Positions 1-4,242 of a stretch of DNA of 4,242 bases are shown one piece after another. Source of the stretch: a virus (Duplodnaviria > Heunggongvirae > Uroviricota > Caudoviricetes); the IMG/VR virus record IMGVR_UViG_2541047441_000007; one strand, written 5' to 3'. Made by a program: the position numbers and the translations under genes. The notes under the pieces were generated by a model that ran no database searches, was not told where the DNA came from, and saw only the letters and a program-made list of their open reading frames with translations. Numbering within the stretch: the first letter of the stretch is position 1; every line of letters starts with the position of its first letter.

Positions 1-12
1 CAGGAATACGAG

Positions 13-38
13 CGCCGGAAGGCGGCTGGTTTTGTTTG
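13..38 (+). terminator. Possible weak intrinsic terminator for an upstream gene outside the window
   Basis: Short GC stem (CGCC 13-16 / GGCG 21-24, loop GGAA) followed by a T-rich tract (TGGTTTTGTTTG, 27-38). The stem is only 4-5 bp, so this is weak. Confidence 0.25.
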
Positions 39-72
39 AATCTGAGAAACGATTTTGTCGGAGGAAATTTTA

Positions 73-789
73 ATGGAAACCGTATCTGACGCACTGAAAG
101 CACTGAAAAGAGCCTCTTCACATGTGGTGGCAGCTCGCCTTGGAATTAGTCGTGAAGAGGCTGTCAACGAACTGTGGAAACTGAAACGCCGTGGAGAAGC
201 GGATAACAAGGGGGCGATATGGTGGCTGACTCAGGCTGGTGAAAGTGAACCGGTGTCACCGGTACCGAAAGTGACGGCGCAAATGCTGACAGAGGCGATT
301 GAACAACATGGCCCACAAACGGCGGATGAACTGGCATTGATGTTCGGAATTACCTCCCGCCGGGCGAATTCATCGCTGGCAATGGCAATCAGCAAAGGGT
401 GTCTGATTCGCGTGAATCAGGATGGTAAATTTCGTTACTGCATACCGGGCGTTGATTTACCGGCAGAGCCGAAAGCAGCATCCGTAGCTGAAACGGAGGG
501 TAAAGCCCTTCCTCAGCCAGCTGGTGTTGCGTTACCAGTCCAGGAAACGGCTGCACAGGAAGAAATTAAAACAGAAGCGGTGGAGGACATTGTGAAGTTG
601 CAGCAATCGTTCACTGAAGCGAAAGCAGATGACCTGATTCTACCATCGCTGCATGTGGCTAACCGCGAGCTGCGCCGGGCGAAAAGTAATGTTCAGAAGT
701 GGGAGCGAGTCTGTGCTGCGCTACGGGAACTGAACAAACACAGGGATATTCTCCGGGATATTACCGCCACCAGAGAGCAGCAGCGGTGA
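73..789 (+). CDS. Hypothetical prophage protein with two tandem winged-helix-like repeats and a charged, helical C-terminal region
   Basis: ATG at 73 preceded by GGAGGAA (59-65) at 7 nt spacing; the ORF-track start at 55 is a TTG without a better SD. Two similar segments (approx. aa 10-60 and 75-135 of the track ORF) each look like a wHTH: ...[21 protein letters not shown]... and ...[27 protein letters not shown].... TGA stop at 787-789 overlaps the next start. Confidence 0.7.
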
Positions 790-1103
790 GTGGCTGGAAG
801 AAGTGGCGCTGGGCTGAAATCCTGATACTCCGGCAGTGTGCGGGAACGATGAGAGTCGAAAGCATCGGTTATCTGATTGGCCGTAGTGAGTCAGCCGTCA
901 GGACGAAAGCGCGGGAACTGGGTATCAGCATGATGTTACGGGGTGATTATCACCAGTCAGCCAAATGTTCACAGCGTGATATTGAGCTGGCGTGGCAACT
1001 GCATCAGCGTGGTGTACCCCGACGGGAAATTGCCGAAAAGTTTGGGATGAAGTTGGGCGCAGTGAATAACTACGTTTATTTCGACAGGAGGGTTCAGGAG
1101 TGA
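786..1103 (+). CDS. Small protein with two HTH-like repeats (putative DNA-binding protein)
   Basis: GTG at 786 overlaps the upstream TGA (787-789), a coupling arrangement. An alternative ATG at 849 lacks a clear SD. Two internal repeats ([30 protein letters not shown] and [29 protein letters not shown]) are only both complete if translation starts at or near 786. Stop TGA at 1101-1103. Confidence 0.6.
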
Positions 1104-1402
1104 GGGTGAGGGTTTATATCGCCGGTCCGATGACGGGATATGAAAATTTTAACCGCGAGGCATTTCACAAAACGGAAGAGGTGCTGAAACGGGAAGGGCA
1201 TACCGTTTTAAACCCGGCAGTACTTCCGGACGGGCTGACTCAGCCACACTACATGGATATTTGCATGGCAATGCTCCGTTGCGTGGATGCGGTTTACATG
1301 CTGAAAGGCTGGCAGCAGTCGGCAGGTGCAGGGGCTGAGCTGGCACTGGAGGAGAAACCGGGCCATGCGGTGATTTTTCAGGAGGTGGGCAGTGAATATT
1401 GA
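1100..1402 (+). CDS. DUF4406 family protein (nucleoside 2-deoxyribosyltransferase-like fold)
   Basis: N-terminus (M/V)[39 protein letters not shown] matches the characteristic VYIAGPMTG...NF...F......L...GH.V.NP signature of DUF4406/deoxyribosyltransferase-like phage proteins (recognised from memory). GTG at 1100 overlaps the upstream stop; GTG at 1106 with AGGAG (1096-1100) is an equally plausible start. Confidence 0.8.
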   Translation: MRVRVYIAGPMTGYENFNREAFHKTEEVLKREGHTVLNPAVLPDGLTQPHYMDICMAMLRCVDAVYMLKGWQQSAGAGAELALEEKPGHAVIFQEVGSEY

Positions 1403-1709
1403 CCCGGCGATAACGATTGATATGGCCCTGAACGCCGGCCTGGCACTTCTTGGTTATTTCTACATTATGTTCTGCAGCGGACGATGGCTGTCACTGTTGT
1501 TCATGAAAAAATGGAATAAACGCCGTAAGCAGGAGCAACGCCAGAAGGCAATGGATGCATTTTTCGAAGCCTTCGGAATTGACGGCATGGAACCAGGGGA
1601 TCCAGCTCGCGCAATCAGCAGAGGGGGTGTAGTAATCCTTGTATATCGGAGTGAAGAGAAAAATGACGATCACAAAACAACGTGTAGAAGAAATCATATC
1701 CCGCATTGA
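1392..1709 (+). CDS. Hypothetical small membrane protein (one predicted TM helix followed by a basic stretch)
   Basis: GTG at 1392 preceded by GGAGGTG (1381-1387); overlaps the upstream gene by 11 nt. Hydrophobic segment ALNAGLALLGYFYIMFCSGRWLSLLFM followed by KKWNKRRKQEQRQK. The 3' end overlaps the next gene by 47 nt, so the true C-terminus and extent are uncertain. Confidence 0.5.
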   Translation: MNIDPAITIDMALNAGLALLGYFYIMFCSGRWLSLLFMKKWNKRRKQEQRQKAMDAFFEAFGIDGMEPGDPARAISRGGVVILVYRSEEKNDDHKTTCRRNHIPH

Positions 1710-1980
1710 AATGTATGGACATGGTGCAGGGTATATCGCAGACGAGGTTAATGATCTGGCTATACTGGCGCTGAATTTATCAAATATCGCGAACCTGAAG
1801 CGATACGAGCTTGATATGGGAGGTTGCGACTCGTGCGGTCAGGATTGTGGCGCTGATATGACTGAAGATCCTGATGGTGATTATGTCCTGTTTGATGACG
1901 TGGTTAAGTTGTTTGAATTTGATACAACCACTCAAAAGTTAGAAATCCCGGCAAAGGAGGCAGCCAGTGGGCAAGATTGA
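1663..1980 (+). CDS. Hypothetical acidic prophage protein with a Cys cluster (GGCDSCGQDCG)
   Basis: ATG at 1663 with GGAG/GAAGAG upstream (1648-1658). The track start at 1639 is TTG, and ATG 1711 is another possible start. The protein is strongly acidic with a C-x2-C-x3-C motif. Stop TGA at 1978-1980. Confidence 0.55.
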   Translation: MTITKQRVEEIISRIEMYGHGAGYIADEVNDLAILALNLSNIANLKRYELDMGGCDSCGQDCGADMTEDPDGDYVLFDDVVKLFEFDTTTQKLEIPAKEAASGQD

Positions 1981-2404
1981 CTATCAGGCACTGCGTGAGG
2001 CAGCACAAAACTATCAATCGACGCTGGCGTGGTATCAGGCTACCCCGGACAGCCCAAATGCTGAACGGGATTGTGATGCGGCTCTTGCTGCGTTTAAGCG
2101 TCACATCCGTCATCGGGAAGCGGATATTATCGCTGATTTGCTGGATGGACTGGAAGAAGCAAAATCACAACTCAACGAGCAGCGTGAGTATTACGAAGGC
2201 GTTATCTCTGATGGGAGCAAGCGTATTGCTGAACTGGAAGCGCGGGAAGTTCAATTACCGACTCGCTACGACCTTCGATATGGACACCCGATAAATGCAG
2301 ATGAGCGACATGTCATGATACCTAAAGAAAATGGCAGTTGGCTTTACCTGATTGACCTAGAACACGCATTACGCGTCGCTGGCATTCGCATCAAAGGAGA
2401 GTGA
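1967..2404 (+). CDS. Hypothetical prophage protein (helical N-terminal half; possibly ead/Ea22-like, unverified)
   Basis: GTG at 1967 preceded by AAGGAGG (1954-1960) at 6 nt spacing; overlaps the upstream gene end. This is the longest ORF in the region and outcompetes the alternative-frame ORF 1977-2294. Stop TGA at 2402-2404. Confidence 0.65.
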   Translation: MGKIDYQALREAAQNYQSTLAWYQATPDSPNAERDCDAALAAFKRHIRHREADIIADLLDGLEEAKSQLNEQREYYEGVISDGSKRIAELEAREVQLPTRYDLRYGHPINADERHVMIPKENGSWLYLIDLEHALRVAGIRIKGE

Positions 2405-2405
2405 G

Positions 2406-2597
2406 ATGAACGGACAAATATCAATTGTTCGACCAGGAGCATGTGACGATCGCGAAATACGAATGATTATTCGTCTGGCGATGGGGAAAACAATAACTGC
2501 TCTCATTACTCCAGAAAATCTCGCATTAGCATTAACAGGAAAGTCAGACATGCCAGTAGAGCTAAAGCTGCGAAATGTTGAGATTAAGGTGAAATAG
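2406..2597 (+). CDS. Hypothetical small protein (63 aa)
   Basis: ATG at 2406 one nt after the upstream stop, with GGAG at 2396-2399. Stop TAG at 2595-2597. Confidence 0.55.
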   Translation: MNGQISIVRPGACDDREIRMIIRLAMGKTITALITPENLALALTGKSDMPVELKLRNVEIKVK

Positions 2598-2599
2598 CT

Positions 2600-3157
2600 A
2601 TGACCACTATTACCAAAGATCGACTGCTGACAATCCAGCATTGGCGCGAAACATACGGACCGGGTAGCAACGTTGTGCTTCCAGCAGAAGAAGCGGAAGA
2701 GCTGGCACGGATTGCGCTGGCATCACTGGCAGCAGTATCGGATGAACGAGCAGCCTATGAATTATTTATGGAGAAGCGTTTCGGAGAATCTGTAGATCGC
2801 CGCAGAGCAAAAAATGGCGATAGAGATTACATGGTATGGGATATGGCGCTTGGCTGGATTATCTGGTGTCACCGCGCCGCCATGCTTCAGGCTGGAAACT
2901 TTCGGGAAAATAAGGGTTCGTCAACCAATAATTTTCGGATAATCTCGGAAACGTCAACCAACTCTCCGGCAATCCCTGATGAGGTGTTGTCCGCAATCCT
3001 GAAGGTCGCCAGGCTTCGTGCAGATTTCGATGCTTCTGAAGTGGACAGGCGAGGTATCGGTAGTTGTCTGGATGAGGCCGAGCAAGAACTTATCGTTACC
3101 ATTAACGAATACGCCAGTCAGATCGCAGTAGAAGCGACACAGGGGGAGAACCAATGA
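2600..3157 (+). CDS. Hypothetical prophage protein (185 aa; possibly ead/Ea22-like, unverified)
   Basis: ATG at 2600 preceded by AAGGTGA (2586-2592), 2 nt after the upstream stop. Stop TGA at 3155-3157 overlaps the next start (ATGA). Confidence 0.65.
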   Translation: MTTITKDRLLTIQHWRETYGPGSNVVLPAEEAEELARIALASLAAVSDERAAYELFMEKRFGESVDRRRAKNGDRDYMVWDMALGWIIWCHRAAMLQAGNFRENKGSSTNNFRIISETSTNSPAIPDEVLSAILKVARLRADFDASEVDRRGIGSCLDEAEQELIVTINEYASQIAVEATQGENQ

Positions 3158-3231
3158 GCCGGCCAGATGCATTTGCAGGCGTTGCTATAGCTATTGCTTT
3201 TCTAGTATATGTTATTTGTCGGTGGGGGTAA
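3154..3231 (+). CDS. Unannotated 25-aa hydrophobic mini-protein (MSRPDAFAGVAIAIAFLVYVICRWG), predicted single TM helix
   Basis: ATG 3154 overlaps the upstream TGA (ATGA). Strong SD AGGGGGAG (3141-3148) at 5 nt spacing. Hydrophobic core AFAGVAIAIAFLVYVI. TAA stop at 3229-3231. Absent from the ORF track because of the length cutoff. Confidence 0.5.
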   Translation: MSRPDAFAGVAIAIAFLVYVICRWG

Positions 3232-3266
3232 AAACGTTCGCCGGGATTCACACCAAAGGAGGGAAT

Positions 3267-3371
3267 ATGTCGGATGATATTTCACTGGCAATGGAAGGCG
3301 CTCTGGCTGTTATTGCTGTTGTGGGTGTTTACTGCCTGGTTGTGTTTTTGATGGAGCGCCTGGGGAACTGA
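3267..3371 (+). CDS. Unannotated 34-aa hydrophobic mini-protein (MSDDISLAMEGALAVIAVVGVYCLVVFLMERLGN), predicted single TM helix
   Basis: ATG 3267 preceded by a near-consensus SD AAGGAGGG (3256-3263). Acidic N-terminus, then a 20-residue hydrophobic stretch, then a charged tail. TGA stop at 3369-3371. Confidence 0.55.
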   Translation: MSDDISLAMEGALAVIAVVGVYCLVVFLMERLGN

Positions 3372-3381
3372 ATTCATTCCG

Positions 3382-3397
3382 TATGGGAATTCCCATA
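3382..3397. promoter_or_regulatory. Perfect 16-bp palindrome TATGGGAATTCCCATA; candidate operator or hairpin between the mini-protein genes and the hok promoter
   Basis: The sequence equals its own reverse complement. It lies 10 bp after the 34-aa ORF stop and 14 bp upstream of the predicted hok -35. As RNA it could form a 6-bp stem with an AAUU loop, but no U-tract follows. Confidence 0.4.
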
Positions 3398-3411
3398 TCG
3401 GGCAAAACGGT

Positions 3412-3439
3412 TTGCTGTAAAGCGAGAGTTAAGTAGAAT
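3412..3439 (+). promoter_or_regulatory. Predicted sigma70 promoter of the hok/mok mRNA
   Basis: -35 TTGCTG (3412-3417), 16-nt spacer, -10 TAGAAT (3434-3439). The predicted start (~3446, GGGUGCUUGAGG...) matches the conserved 5' end of hok-family mRNAs as I recall it from plasmid R1. Confidence 0.6.
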
Positions 3440-3491
3440 TGCTGCGGGTGCTTGAGGCTGTCTGCCTCGGGCATGCCACCGTAAGGCAGAC

Positions 3492-3566
3492 AGAGAAAAG
3501 CCCCAGTTAACATTACGCGTCCTGCAAGACGCTTAACATTAATCTGAGGCCCAATCTATGCTTCAC
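3492..3566 (-). ncRNA. sok: Sok-like antisense RNA (type I antitoxin), predicted
   Basis: Antisense to the hok mRNA leader and the mok start codon (3558-3560). On the minus strand an imperfect 16-bp hairpin (complement of 3506-3543) is followed by GGGGCUUUUCUCU. Position and layout parallel R1 Sok. The ends are approximate. Confidence 0.5.
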
Positions 3567-3770
3567 AAACGTAGGTTAGCCTCTTACGCGCCGAAAGGCA
3601 AGGAGAAGCAGGTTATGAAGCAGCAAAAGGCGATGTTAATCGCCCTGATCGTCATCTGTTTAACCGTCATAGTGACGGCACTGGTAACGAGGAAAGACCT
3701 CTGCGAGGTACGAATCCGAACCGGCCAGACGGAGGTCGCTGTCTTCGTAGACTACGAATCTGAGAAGTAA
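3558..3770 (+). CDS. mok: mok-like reading frame (modulator of killing) overlapping hok, here in frame with hok
   Basis: ATG at 3558 opens an ORF that continues in frame through hok. The leader sequence AGCCUCUUACGCGCCGAAAGGCAAGGAGAAGCAGGUUAUG resembles the R1 mok/hok junction. Whether it is translated as a separate product is unknown. Confidence 0.5.
   Translation: MLHKRRLASYAPKGKEKQVMKQQKAMLIALIVICLTVIVTALVTRKDLCEVRIRTGQTEVAVFVDYESEK
3573..3601 (-). promoter_or_regulatory. Predicted promoter of the Sok-like antisense RNA
   Basis: On the minus strand: -35 TTGCCT (plus 3601-3596), 17-nt spacer, -10 TAACCT (plus 3578-3573). This puts the start at ~3566-3565, inside the 5' end of mok, the same layout as R1 sok (TTGCGC / TATCCT from memory). 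Confidence 0.45.
3615..3770 (+). CDS. hok: Hok/Gef family type I toxin (51 aa, small membrane toxin)
   Basis: Translation MKQQKAMLIALIVICLTVIVTALVTRKDLCEVRIRTGQTEVAVFVDYESEK is near-identical to chromosomal Hok/Gef proteins as recalled (HokD/RelF, HokC/Gef). ATG 3615 with GGAG at 3602-3605; TAA stop at 3768-3770. Confidence 0.9.
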   Translation: MKQQKAMLIALIVICLTVIVTALVTRKDLCEVRIRTGQTEVAVFVDYESEK

Positions 3771-3819
3771 GAGACCAAGCGGGGGAGTAATCTCCCGCCA
3801 CCTCTGATGTGTCAGGCAT

Positions 3820-3834
3820 CCTCAACGCACCCGC
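3820..3834 (+). other. Fold-back-inhibition (fbi)-like 3' element of the hok mRNA
   Basis: CCUCAACGCACCCGC (3820-3834) is complementary to the predicted 5' end GCGGGUGCUUGAGG (3444-3457) with a single bulged C, as expected for 5'-3' pairing in hok mRNAs. A separate hairpin lies at 3779-3799. Confidence 0.55.
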
Positions 3835-3889
3835 GCTTTACCATACTGAAAATGCTGTTTGAATGTTCATCTCTGAAAGAGGACTATGA

Positions 3890-4234
3890 ATGAAAAAGGT
3901 ATTGATTGCAGCACTTATTTCTGGTGTGTCTTTTGGCGCTTTTGCACAGCAGGGCGGTTTCCAAGGGCCTGAAGCAGAGCGTTCAACAGTAGCGCAGGCA
4001 AAAGAACTGAAGGATGATGCATGGGTTATCCTTGAAGGGAGCATCGTTAAAAAAGTGGGTGATGAACGTTATGAGTTTCGTGACAATAGCGGGACAATTG
4101 TCACGGATATCGATGACAGCATATGGGCCGGTCAGAATGTTTCTCCGAAAGACAAAGTAAGAATTGAGGGTGAAATTGATAAAGACCTGAGCAGTGTTGA
4201 AGTGGATGTAAAGGCACTGAAATTATTAAAGTAA
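3890..4234 (+). CDS. YgiW/YdeI (BOF) family periplasmic OB-fold protein with N-terminal signal peptide
   Basis: ATG 3890 preceded by AAAGAGGA (3877-3884). Signal peptide MKKVLIAALISGVSFGAFA with a likely cleavage after AFA. The mature part (...AWVILEGSIVKKVGDERYEFRDNSGTIVTDIDD...VRIEGEIDKD...VEVDVKALKLLK) fits the BOF/YgiW pattern from memory. TAA stop at 4232-4234. Confidence 0.85.
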   Translation: MKKVLIAALISGVSFGAFAQQGGFQGPEAERSTVAQAKELKDDAWVILEGSIVKKVGDERYEFRDNSGTIVTDIDDSIWAGQNVSPKDKVRIEGEIDKDLSSVEVDVKALKLLK

Positions 4235-4242
4235 CCGTCCCT

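Follow-up and report, generated by a model that had tools for sequence, protein, structure and literature searches.

Within a 4,242-nucleotide stretch of DNA from a caudoviricete virus (IMG/VR record IMGVR_UViG_2541047441_000007; the whole stretch is called the window here) lies a gene whose product is a member of the DUF4406 family (Table 1), within the superfamily of nucleoside 2-deoxyribosyltransferase (NDT)-like proteins. The reading that we favour, and put forward tentatively, is that this product may well be a minimal N-glycosidase of (deoxy)nucleoside 5'-monophosphates (dNMP/NMP), about 95 residues long with a four-stranded sheet, which would act as a hydrolase, probably on a 2'-deoxy substrate. 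The enzymes that serve as models for such an activity are DNPH1/Rcl, MilB/BlsM and the phage protein DmtZ. Most, but not all, of the sequence features that distinguish the dNMP/NMP N-glycosidase group are present in the protein, and those of NDTs proper are absent.

Family, fold and active-site residues

In Pfam-A the protein has a single match, PF14359 (DUF4406; 115.1 bits with a cut-off of 22, E=2e-33), which spans residues 4-92 on the protein side and 2-90 of the 91 profile positions. This bears out the sequence-only reading, an earlier note made from the letters alone, which had named the family from an N-terminal signature (VYIAGPMTG...NF...F...L...GH.V.NP) that is indeed present in the translation. 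All of the family motifs (YIAGPM(T/S)G, NR.AF, LNPA.LP.GL, YM.IC.AM and GW..S.GA..E...A) are found, and the window allele departs from them at two places, 84 (Glu, not Ala) and 87 (Pro, not Leu). PHROG 355, labelled 'nucleoside 2-deoxyribosyltransferase', also matches (E=4e-43), the two matches being much stronger than chance would give, and a search of NCBIfam gave no match. The gene is already known: it is 100% nucleotide-identical to EDL933_RS08310 (WP_001310212.1) of Escherichia coli O157:H7 EDL933, which RefSeq labels 'DUF4406 domain-containing protein'. Membership in DUF4406 explains little about the protein; the family has no assigned function.

An AlphaFold2 model of the window protein, built on a 38-sequence alignment (mean predicted local distance difference test score [pLDDT] 90.4; predicted template modelling score [pTM] 0.84), has the order b1-a1-b2-a2-b3-a3-b4: strand 4-8, helix 15-31, strand 35-37, helix 48-59, strand 64-67, helix 75-85 and strand 90-93. 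This is a three-layer alpha/beta fold with a parallel sheet, like that of the solved superfamily members. When the model was compared with the PDB by Foldseek, essentially all of the top matches were the NDT of Trypanosoma brucei, other NDTs, human DNPH1 and MilB (template modelling [TM] score of about 0.7), so that the deoxyribosyltransferase-like fold proposed from the sequence holds. Among predicted viral structures (BFVD) there were 42 matches at E<=1e-3, mostly labelled NDT or DUF4406, and the BFVD matches include the characterised DmtZ of Gordonia phage Ghobes (E=1.7e-3). The chain stops about seven residues past strand 4; the solved relatives have 125-165 residues.

Mapping of residues onto solved enzymes needed a diverse family alignment (A2; 46 sequences, down to 34% identity). 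Searches of PDB sequences with the single sequence or with a close-family profile gave chance matches only, and the local matches returned by hhalign between a shallow alignment (A1) and the single sequences of DNPH1 or Lactobacillus leichmannii NDT, both checked against their PDB chains, were meaningless and were discarded. The A2 profile matched T. brucei NDT (7.9e-7), the cytidine 5'-monophosphate (CMP) N-glycosidase 4jen (4.7e-4), BlsM (7.2e-4), MilB (0.03) and also the NDT of Leishmania mexicana, with mutually consistent alignments to these PDB proteins. Within A2, only G9, F22, S74, G76 and E80 are invariant. Position counts were taken over 146 cluster representatives, with some positions counted in 136-137.

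At the N-terminus, YIAGP aligns with the YIAGP of T. brucei NDT and the FLAGP of BlsM, and the aromatic residue at the end of strand 1, which in the superfamily orients the Glu and senses the 2' position of the sugar, is therefore present as Y6, which falls on the Tyr of the former and the Phe of the latter. The counterparts of the Y6-G13 segment are Y24-FCGSIRG in DNPH1 and F17-LGGPFR in MilB. Over the 146 representatives the segment is strongly kept (position 6, Y122/F18; 9, G142; 10, P129; 11, M124; 12, T93/S41; 13, G135). From the published roles (PMC10603095, PMC4081090) we take it to supply a Tyr under the sugar, a hydrophobic contact with the base and a glycine-rich loop.

The second segment, S74-x-G76-x-x-x-E80, aligns with S97-P-G99-T-H-V-E103 of MilB and with S-P-G-T-H-I/V-E of BlsM and the CMP N-glycosidase; in T. 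brucei NDT it reads D-C-G-T-A-F-E. E80 thus falls on MilB E103 and on the Glu that T. brucei NDT, BlsM and 4jen have at the same motif position; the Ser/Thr-x-Gly phosphate turn six and four residues before the nucleophile is present as the invariant S74 and G76. Position 74 is Ser in 136/137 representatives, position 80 is Glu in 134/136, and the two occur together in 133/136. In MilB the ligands of the 5'-phosphate are Ser97 and Gly99, Asp78 makes contact with both the ribose and the base, and the E103A mutant is catalytically inactive (PMC10603095, PMC4081090). DNPH1 has the triad Y24/D80/E104, in which E104 is the covalent nucleophile; its S98, the equivalent of MilB S97, binds phosphate, and its Y24 is the equivalent of MilB F17, which sets the preference for deoxyribose versus ribose (PMC10603095, PMC4081090).

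The place of the triad Asp/Asn is taken by Cys55, whose equivalents are D78 in MilB, D80 in DNPH1, D72 in L. leichmannii NDT, an Asn in T. brucei NDT and N77 in DmtZ. In the alignments to 4jen, 5vto, 4jel and 2a0k it lies on the Asp of RLD-HD (MilB D78), KLD-YD and PLD-QL, and on the Asn of the T. brucei enzyme; in NDT, DNPH1 and MilB alike, this position stands eight residues ahead of the Asp found just before strand 3. The authors of the DmtZ study noted that T. brucei PDT likewise has Asn at the middle triad position, which lends independent support to the Cys55 alignment. The place of MilB R23 and DNPH1 R30 is held by Thr12 (T/S in the family), and a conserved Arg19 (R121/K9) follows seven residues later; at a guess, Arg19 might stand in as a second phosphate ligand. 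Judged from the alignment, conservation in the manner of catalytic residues is seen for the putative nucleophile, for the turn that would bind phosphate and for the aromatic residue, whereas the third triad position is usually, but not strictly, Cys.

From these residues we infer a substrate and a type of reaction. The residue six before the nucleophile touches the 5' substituent of the sugar. It is Asp in the NDTs of T. brucei (DCGTAFE) and L. leichmannii (D92..E98), and is Ser74 here, as in MilB, BlsM and DNPH1; a nucleoside 5'-monophosphate is therefore the molecule most likely bound. Tyr6 suggests a 2'-deoxy sugar, and the absence of the water-excluding C-terminal lid favours hydrolysis over transfer. 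In the proposed mechanism, the 5'-phosphate of the sugar would be held by a loop, Y6-IAGPM(T/S)G, together with a turn, S74-x-G76, while Met11 would pack against the base. From its place at the N-terminal end of helix 3, Glu80 would attack C1' to give a covalent (deoxy)ribosyl-5-phosphate-enzyme ester, from which water would then free (deoxy)ribose 5-phosphate. Cys55 would occupy the place of the Asp/Asn that assists the leaving base, so that either the thiol or another residue would be used, or the base of the substrate leaves easily.

The setting of the gene bears on the role of such an enzyme. It is predicted to be co-transcribed and translationally coupled with the small accessory genes of an early-right, nin-like operon, and membership in that operon implies that the product would act in lytic growth, removing or recycling some nucleotide of the pool. 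Since no partner gene is conserved, the role would most simply be nucleotide-pool editing during lytic growth. There are phage precedents for the destruction of dNMPs: DmtZ removes deoxyadenosine 5'-monophosphate (dAMP) and makes dZMP in Z-genome phages, and T5 Dmp removes dAMP and so blocks the dITP signalling of the Kongming defence. Both of these lie outside DUF4406.

The family is large and under purifying selection. HMMER searches of 1.84 billion cluster representatives gave 9087 clusters at 50% identity (E<=1e-3), and tblastn found homologues in 521 phage records, mostly of Arthrobacter, Vibrio, Gordonia, Mycobacterium and Pseudomonas phages, with enterobacterial phages also represented. 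Copies at >=80% nucleotide identity are carried by 1115/5426 complete E. coli genomes, up to four in each. The sample used for alleles and for the ratio of non-synonymous to synonymous changes consists of near-identical E. coli prophages (79 copies) found with A1; a search with A2 again gave gammaproteobacterial relatives only. The ratio of non-synonymous to synonymous polymorphism (pN/pS) has a median of 0.10 over 43 distinct alleles from E. coli prophages, and the family is therefore maintained by selection.

Points against the assignment and alternative readings

A number of observations weigh against an N-glycosidase. The catalytic site on which the sequence-only reading had hinged is there in part: E80, Y6, S74 and G76 are present and nearly invariant, but the third triad residue, Asp or Asn, is replaced by Cys55, and the C-terminal strand and lid are missing. 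Position 55 itself varies (C97, D19, T8, A8, G6, S3, N2; that is, C 66%, D 13% and others 18%), and no alternative acid is conserved across the family, D53 occurring in about half only. Indeed, Asp53 was considered as a relocated general acid and rejected, since no more than about half of the members with Cys55 have it. That Cys55 and Glu80 would share one pocket is drawn from the alignment and not from coordinates. The model lacks the fifth strand and the C-terminal helix or segment that complete the partner's active site in NDT and DNPH1, and the hhalign alignment of A2 with DmtZ, although topologically sensible, has a probability of <1%. In the window allele, position 84 is Glu, where 128/136 representatives (94%) have Ala. 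Finally, a literature search for DUF4406, PF14359 and DUF1937 turned up no functional study, and one for deoxyribosyltransferase together with lambdoid or anti-defence turned up no functional study of the family.

Domain fusions belong with these points. Twenty long homologues were scanned singly and 60 together, and they contained DUF4406 alone plus read-through into adjacent phage genes (DUF4752, DUF551 or helix-turn-helix [HTH]), with no informative fusion and no dNTPase fusion among the 60. Two BFVD matches are named 'dATP/dGTP diphosphohydrolase N-terminal domain-containing', and by that name alone entries A0A6J5LQ71 and A0A6J5S4N9 would be DUF5664-DUF4406 fusions. If such fusions are true, they would point to a route that leads from dNTP through dNMP to the free base, like that of the DmtZ-DutZ fusion. 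A longer form does occur in Mycobacterium phage Aminay, whose gp56 (locus L092, 2009-2803; 264 aa) carries DUF4406 C-terminally, at residues 164-255. Its N-terminal 160-164 residues or so have no PHROGs match, and the whole protein matches DUF4406 only in Pfam, so the N-terminal part may be an uncharacterised partner domain. Similar longer forms are found in ZoeJ and MalagasyRose, according to BFVD.

The missing elements invite the suggestion that the protein keeps the NDT-like pocket and binds a nucleotide without turning it over, as a small sponge or regulator, or that the cryptic-prophage copy of O157 is a decaying gene with no current function; we consider this unlikely. The protein is very small and lacks the third triad residue and the lid, and phage nucleotide sponges are typically small. 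Decay has its own indications: prophage Sp6 of O157, in which the gene lies, is partly defective, with a truncated exonuclease and a TerB pseudogene nearby, and among the 79 prophage copies the window allele has four private changes relative to its nearest relatives (Ala25Thr, Arg78Gly, Ala84Glu and Leu87Pro), three of them grouped in the helix that bears the putative nucleophile. Its pN/pS to the nearest alleles is raised, to 0.3-0.67, but the counts behind this value are tiny (4 non-synonymous versus 4 synonymous changes). The Ala lost at position 84 is that of the superfamily E-x-x-x-A motif (ELGRA in DNPH1, EIGWA in MilB, ELGYA in NDT), and because Ala84Glu strikes this conserved residue the O157 allele may be weakened, with Leu87Pro a possible contributor. 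Against the suggestion, as far as the family is concerned, the near-absolute conservation of Glu80, Ser74 and Gly76 over >130 representatives and the median pN/pS are what is expected of a catalytic site; against decay, the open reading frame (ORF) is intact and identical across hundreds of O157 genomes.

That the protein is a genuine nucleoside 2-deoxyribosyltransferase (EC 2.4.2.6), swapping bases between deoxynucleosides for salvage, is what the PHROG 355 label and many phage annotations would have it be. The best Foldseek and profile matches are indeed NDTs, above all T. brucei NDT with its shared YIAGP and its Asn at the triad position, and phage NDTs with dA-specific transferase activity exist. 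We nevertheless regard this as very unlikely. The window protein does not reach the NDT family PF05014 at E<=0.01 in Pfam-A (some actinophage DUF4406 proteins do, at 1.8e-8, bridging both families). Moreover, its invariant Ser in place of the NDT Asp is that of the 5'-phosphate-binding hydrolases, DmtZ likewise lacks the Asp/Asn that stabilises the 5'-hydroxyl in NDTs, and the C-terminal segment that closes the partner's site and excludes water is absent, which favours hydrolysis. The widespread 'NDT' label on phage homologues is thus probably an over-annotation, and other GenBank labels on them are misleading as well: proteins named 'deoxycytidylate deaminase' or 'MazG-like pyrophosphatase' hold DUF4406 alone (Table 1), and the DmtZ of Ghobes, a characterised dAMP glycosidase, still carries the label 'deoxyuridine triphosphatase'.

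A defence-related activity was part of the sequence-only reading, which offered the protein as a possible counter-defence or nucleotide-modifying factor and suggested manipulation of the nucleotide pool, modification of DNA bases or breakdown of signalling nucleotides; these ideas are reasonable but speculative. One form of this would be a glycohydrolase that uses Glu80 alone on a nucleotide with a cationic leaving group (nicotinamide mononucleotide [NMN], NAD+, an ADP-ribose-derived or other immune signal), with TIR-domain NADases as the model. The missing Asp and a likeness to TIR domains permit such a Glu-only enzyme, but it seems to us quite unlikely: the sequence links all lead to NDTs and to CMP/dNMP glycosidases and none to TIR or SLOG families, PADLOC gave no match and no known anti-defence gene is co-localised in the window or in Sp6, a phage that depleted NAD+ would hurt itself, and the dNMP kinase by which Kongming is triggered is generally missing from lambdoid phages. 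We give equally little credence to a broader proposal, that DUF4406 is a very large phage-borne class of minimal Glu/Cys N-glycosidases that depart from the canonical Tyr-Asp-Glu triad and serve, in the early operon, either counter-defence or the clearing of a toxic non-canonical host nucleotide. In counter-defence they would destroy a nucleotide immune signal, such as a messenger derived from NAD, or a precursor of one, such as the dAMP/dIMP that feed dITP signalling. PADLOC returned no match for the DUF4406 protein or for its eight neighbours, and a counter-defence or DNA-modification role is unsupported by fusions, conserved neighbours, PADLOC or literature; base modification of DNA has the least in its favour, because genes for such modification are not found with the DUF4406 gene. 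The notion that the anti-Kongming factor is an NDT-like protein was also considered and rejected, as that factor is the phosphatase T5 Dmp.

The N-glycosidase assignment is worth stating because, if the residue mapping is right, DUF4406 proteins would be nucleotide hydrolases and not nucleoside transferases, and would stand alongside DmtZ and T5 Dmp as editors of the dNMP pool. The family is large and uncharacterised, although in this window the gene is a routine prophage accessory gene. Many DUF4406 copies are probably mislabelled 'nucleoside 2-deoxyribosyltransferase', 'dCMP deaminase' or 'MazG-like', and these annotations would be corrected if the assignment is true. What is gained is a sharper prediction, that of a nucleotide hydrolase with a Tyr/Cys/Glu site, which is cheap and directly testable. 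The O157 allele is perhaps not the best choice for testing DUF4406 activity.

The gene and its prophage operon

The reading frame of the DUF4406 gene has two candidate starts (coordinates of the features are given in Table 1). AGGAGG (1086-1091) lies 8 nt 5' of the GTG at 1100, which shares bases, as GTGA, with the TGA (1101-1103) of the upstream gene. A second GTG in the same frame, at 1106, follows 5 nt after a separate Shine-Dalgarno sequence, AGGAG (1096-1100), and would give MRVYIAGP, matching the usual family N-terminus M-x-x-YIAGP. Both GTG codons are kept in the 79 related prophage copies, and the real start may be either. Two minus-strand ORFs (1149-1346 and 1208-1366) fall within the gene and are assumed to be by-products of the coding strand.

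Table 1. Coordinates of the DUF4406 gene, its putative active-site codons, its neighbours and related loci
Feature	Position	Strand	Remarks
DUF4406 coding sequence	1100..1402	+	100 codons, GTG start, TGA stop; frame intact
Translation-initiation region of DUF4406 gene	1086..1108	+	read straight from sequence
Codons Y6-I-A-G-P-M-T-G13	1115..1138	+	end of strand 1 and loop
Cys55 codon TGC	1262..1264	+	place of triad Asp/Asn
Codons S74-A-G76-A-G-A-E80	1319..1339	+	predicted phosphate-binding Ser-x-Gly and putative nucleophile Glu, helix 3 N-terminus
Private-change codons	1173-1175, 1331-1333, 1349-1351, 1358-1360	+	allele comparison
Codons E84-E-K-P87	1349..1360	+	carry private Ala84Glu and Leu87Pro
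Upstream neighbour, 105-aa HTH protein	786..1103	+	GTG start per EDL933; stop overlaps DUF4406 start
Downstream neighbour, DUF4752 protein	1392..1709	+	PF15944, E=7.5e-39; GTG start overlaps DUF4406 end, 11 nt
DUF1627 gene	55-789	+	Pfam E=7e-82
Anti-defence gene, Vibrio metschnikovii prophage (CP046822.1)	L088 11389-11631		not adjacent to DUF4406
Anti-defence gene, second prophage	L087 12143-12327		not adjacent to DUF4406
Mislabelled phage loci	L002 2980-3342, L003 3001-3537, L004 3004-3357, L091 12693-13178		set includes DmtZ of Ghobes
Product names that look wrong			Arthrobacter phage Andrew gp55 and Pseudomonas phage LESphi3 P31_11 ('deoxycytidylate deaminase'); BaileyBlu gp28 ('MazG-like pyrophosphatase')

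Positions 1-3842 of the window are 98.7% identical to the Sp6 prophage that Sakai, EDL933 and many other E. coli O157:H7 genomes carry. In EDL933 the order is integrase, excisionase, racR-type repressor, HTH, YdaT, DnaT-like, P and DUF1627, then the small HTH protein, DUF4406, DUF4752, a hypothetical protein, Ead/Ea22, a second hypothetical protein and DUF551, followed by hokD, DUF968, RusA, the antiterminator and the lysis genes. The prophage operon named in the sequence-only reading is therefore confirmed: the DUF4406 gene sits between the replication genes on one side and hokD/DUF968/RusA/antiterminator Q on the other, a place that corresponds to the nin region of lambda. The nin region is a run of small, dispensable accessory genes transcribed from the early-right promoter.

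From 55 to 3157 there are eight consecutive plus-strand genes, whose junctions are overlaps of 4, 4, 11, 47 and 14 nt and then gaps of 1 and 2 nt. The DUF4406 gene itself overlaps its neighbours by 4 nt upstream and 11 nt downstream, and GTGA stop/start overlaps occur at 786-789 and 1100-1103. This arrangement suggests translational coupling along the entire accessory-gene block. Counts of promoter-like and terminator-like sequences in the window were no higher than the shuffle background.

The upstream HTH protein has weak Sigma70_r4_2 and HTH matches in Pfam and falls in PHROG 323 ('transcriptional regulator'). DUF4752 often, but not always, lies next to the DUF4406 gene; elsewhere in E. coli, copies are followed by DUF977 or by DNA-binding genes. 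The homologues in Vibrio prophages and in a metagenomic contig likewise follow replication genes and precede DUF968, integrase or lysis genes; across the four contexts compared (E. coli, Vibrio and metagenomic prophages) no enzymatic neighbour is conserved. Two DUF4406-bearing prophages encode anti-defence genes elsewhere, one an Acb2/Tad1-hairpin gene (a cyclic-nucleotide sponge family) beside the lysis genes, the other a Lar-like restriction-alleviation gene.

Several other features of the window were seen. The DUF1627 protein has a weak, sub-threshold Pfam match to an AlkZ-like DNA glycosylase region (E=1e-3) and, in PHROGs, weak matches to MarR-family and other transcriptional-regulator families and to a Ren-like exclusion protein family. 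The ORF at 2600-3157 lies where EDL933 has its 'DUF551 domain-containing protein', but Pfam gives no match for it and PHROG 14306 matches its C-terminal half only; the alignment of the window to EDL933 breaks into two pieces here, and the ORF is probably a mosaic replacement inside the gene. A complete hok/sok-type type I toxin-antitoxin locus occupies 3446-3770. Its sok antitoxin RNA (Rfam; 3446-3620, 114.9 bits) overlaps the beginning of a mok-like ORF of 70 codons (3558-3770), and the last 51 residues of the ORF product form a Hok/Gef toxin (Pfam E=1e-22; hokD in EDL933). Synteny with Sp6 stops at 3842. The last 400 bases (3843-4242) hold, at 3890-4234, a gene for a 114-aa secreted OB-fold protein (BOF, NirD/YgiW/YdeI family) of stress tolerance, which is not found at this place in Sp6 and is 100% identical to copies elsewhere in Shiga toxin-producing E. 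coli (STEC) genomes, by appearance in other lambdoid prophages. The window is thus a mosaic, and none of the complete E. coli genomes searched contains it undivided (best coverage 86%).

Comparison with characterised enzymes

Among solved relatives, DNPH1/Rcl (PDB 4p5e, 8qhq, 2khz) is a 2'-deoxynucleoside 5'-phosphate N-hydrolase, the activity proposed for the window protein, in which D80 corresponds to Cys55. Its core is about 145 aa compared with 100 aa here, with no detectable pairwise sequence similarity, and its E55/H56 helical element, shielding loop, fifth strand and partner extension (S128') have no counterpart. The CMP and hydroxymethyl-CMP N-glycosidases of the MilB/BlsM/BcmB type (4jel, 4jem, 5vto, 4jen) come from an unrelated setting, antibiotic biosynthesis. 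MilB has a Phe, for ribose preference, where the window protein has Tyr, and its Asp78 and Arg23 are replaced by Cys55 and Thr12.

The NDTs (PF05014; L. leichmannii 1f8x, T. brucei 2a0k) share the fold, the nucleophile Glu and the Tyr, and the YIAGP of the window protein is identical to that of T. brucei NDT; in contrast, the window protein has Ser for the Asp that binds the 5'-OH and lacks the C-terminal residues of the partner site. A further structure, PDB 1t1j (APC5043; 125 aa), is a structural-genomics 'hypothetical protein' whose profile-match region is like that of Pfam DUF1937-type proteins.

DmtZ (Gordonia phage Ghobes, AOE44404.1; Z-genome actinophages), a dAMP-specific N-glycosidase and deoxyribose 5-phosphate (dR5P) transferase, is a phage-encoded enzyme of the NDT superfamily, stand-alone or fused, that acts on a dNMP. 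Its triad, Y6/N77/E103, has a non-Asp middle residue, as the window protein does, and its 5'-phosphate pocket is likewise formed by small uncharged residues. It belongs, however, to a different family, with no DUF4406 match and a weak match to PF05014 only, and has 161 aa with a C-terminal lid (Trp124) that the window protein lacks. DmtZ is linked to PurZ0/DutZ and to 2-aminoadenine genomes, whereas this prophage carries none of these.

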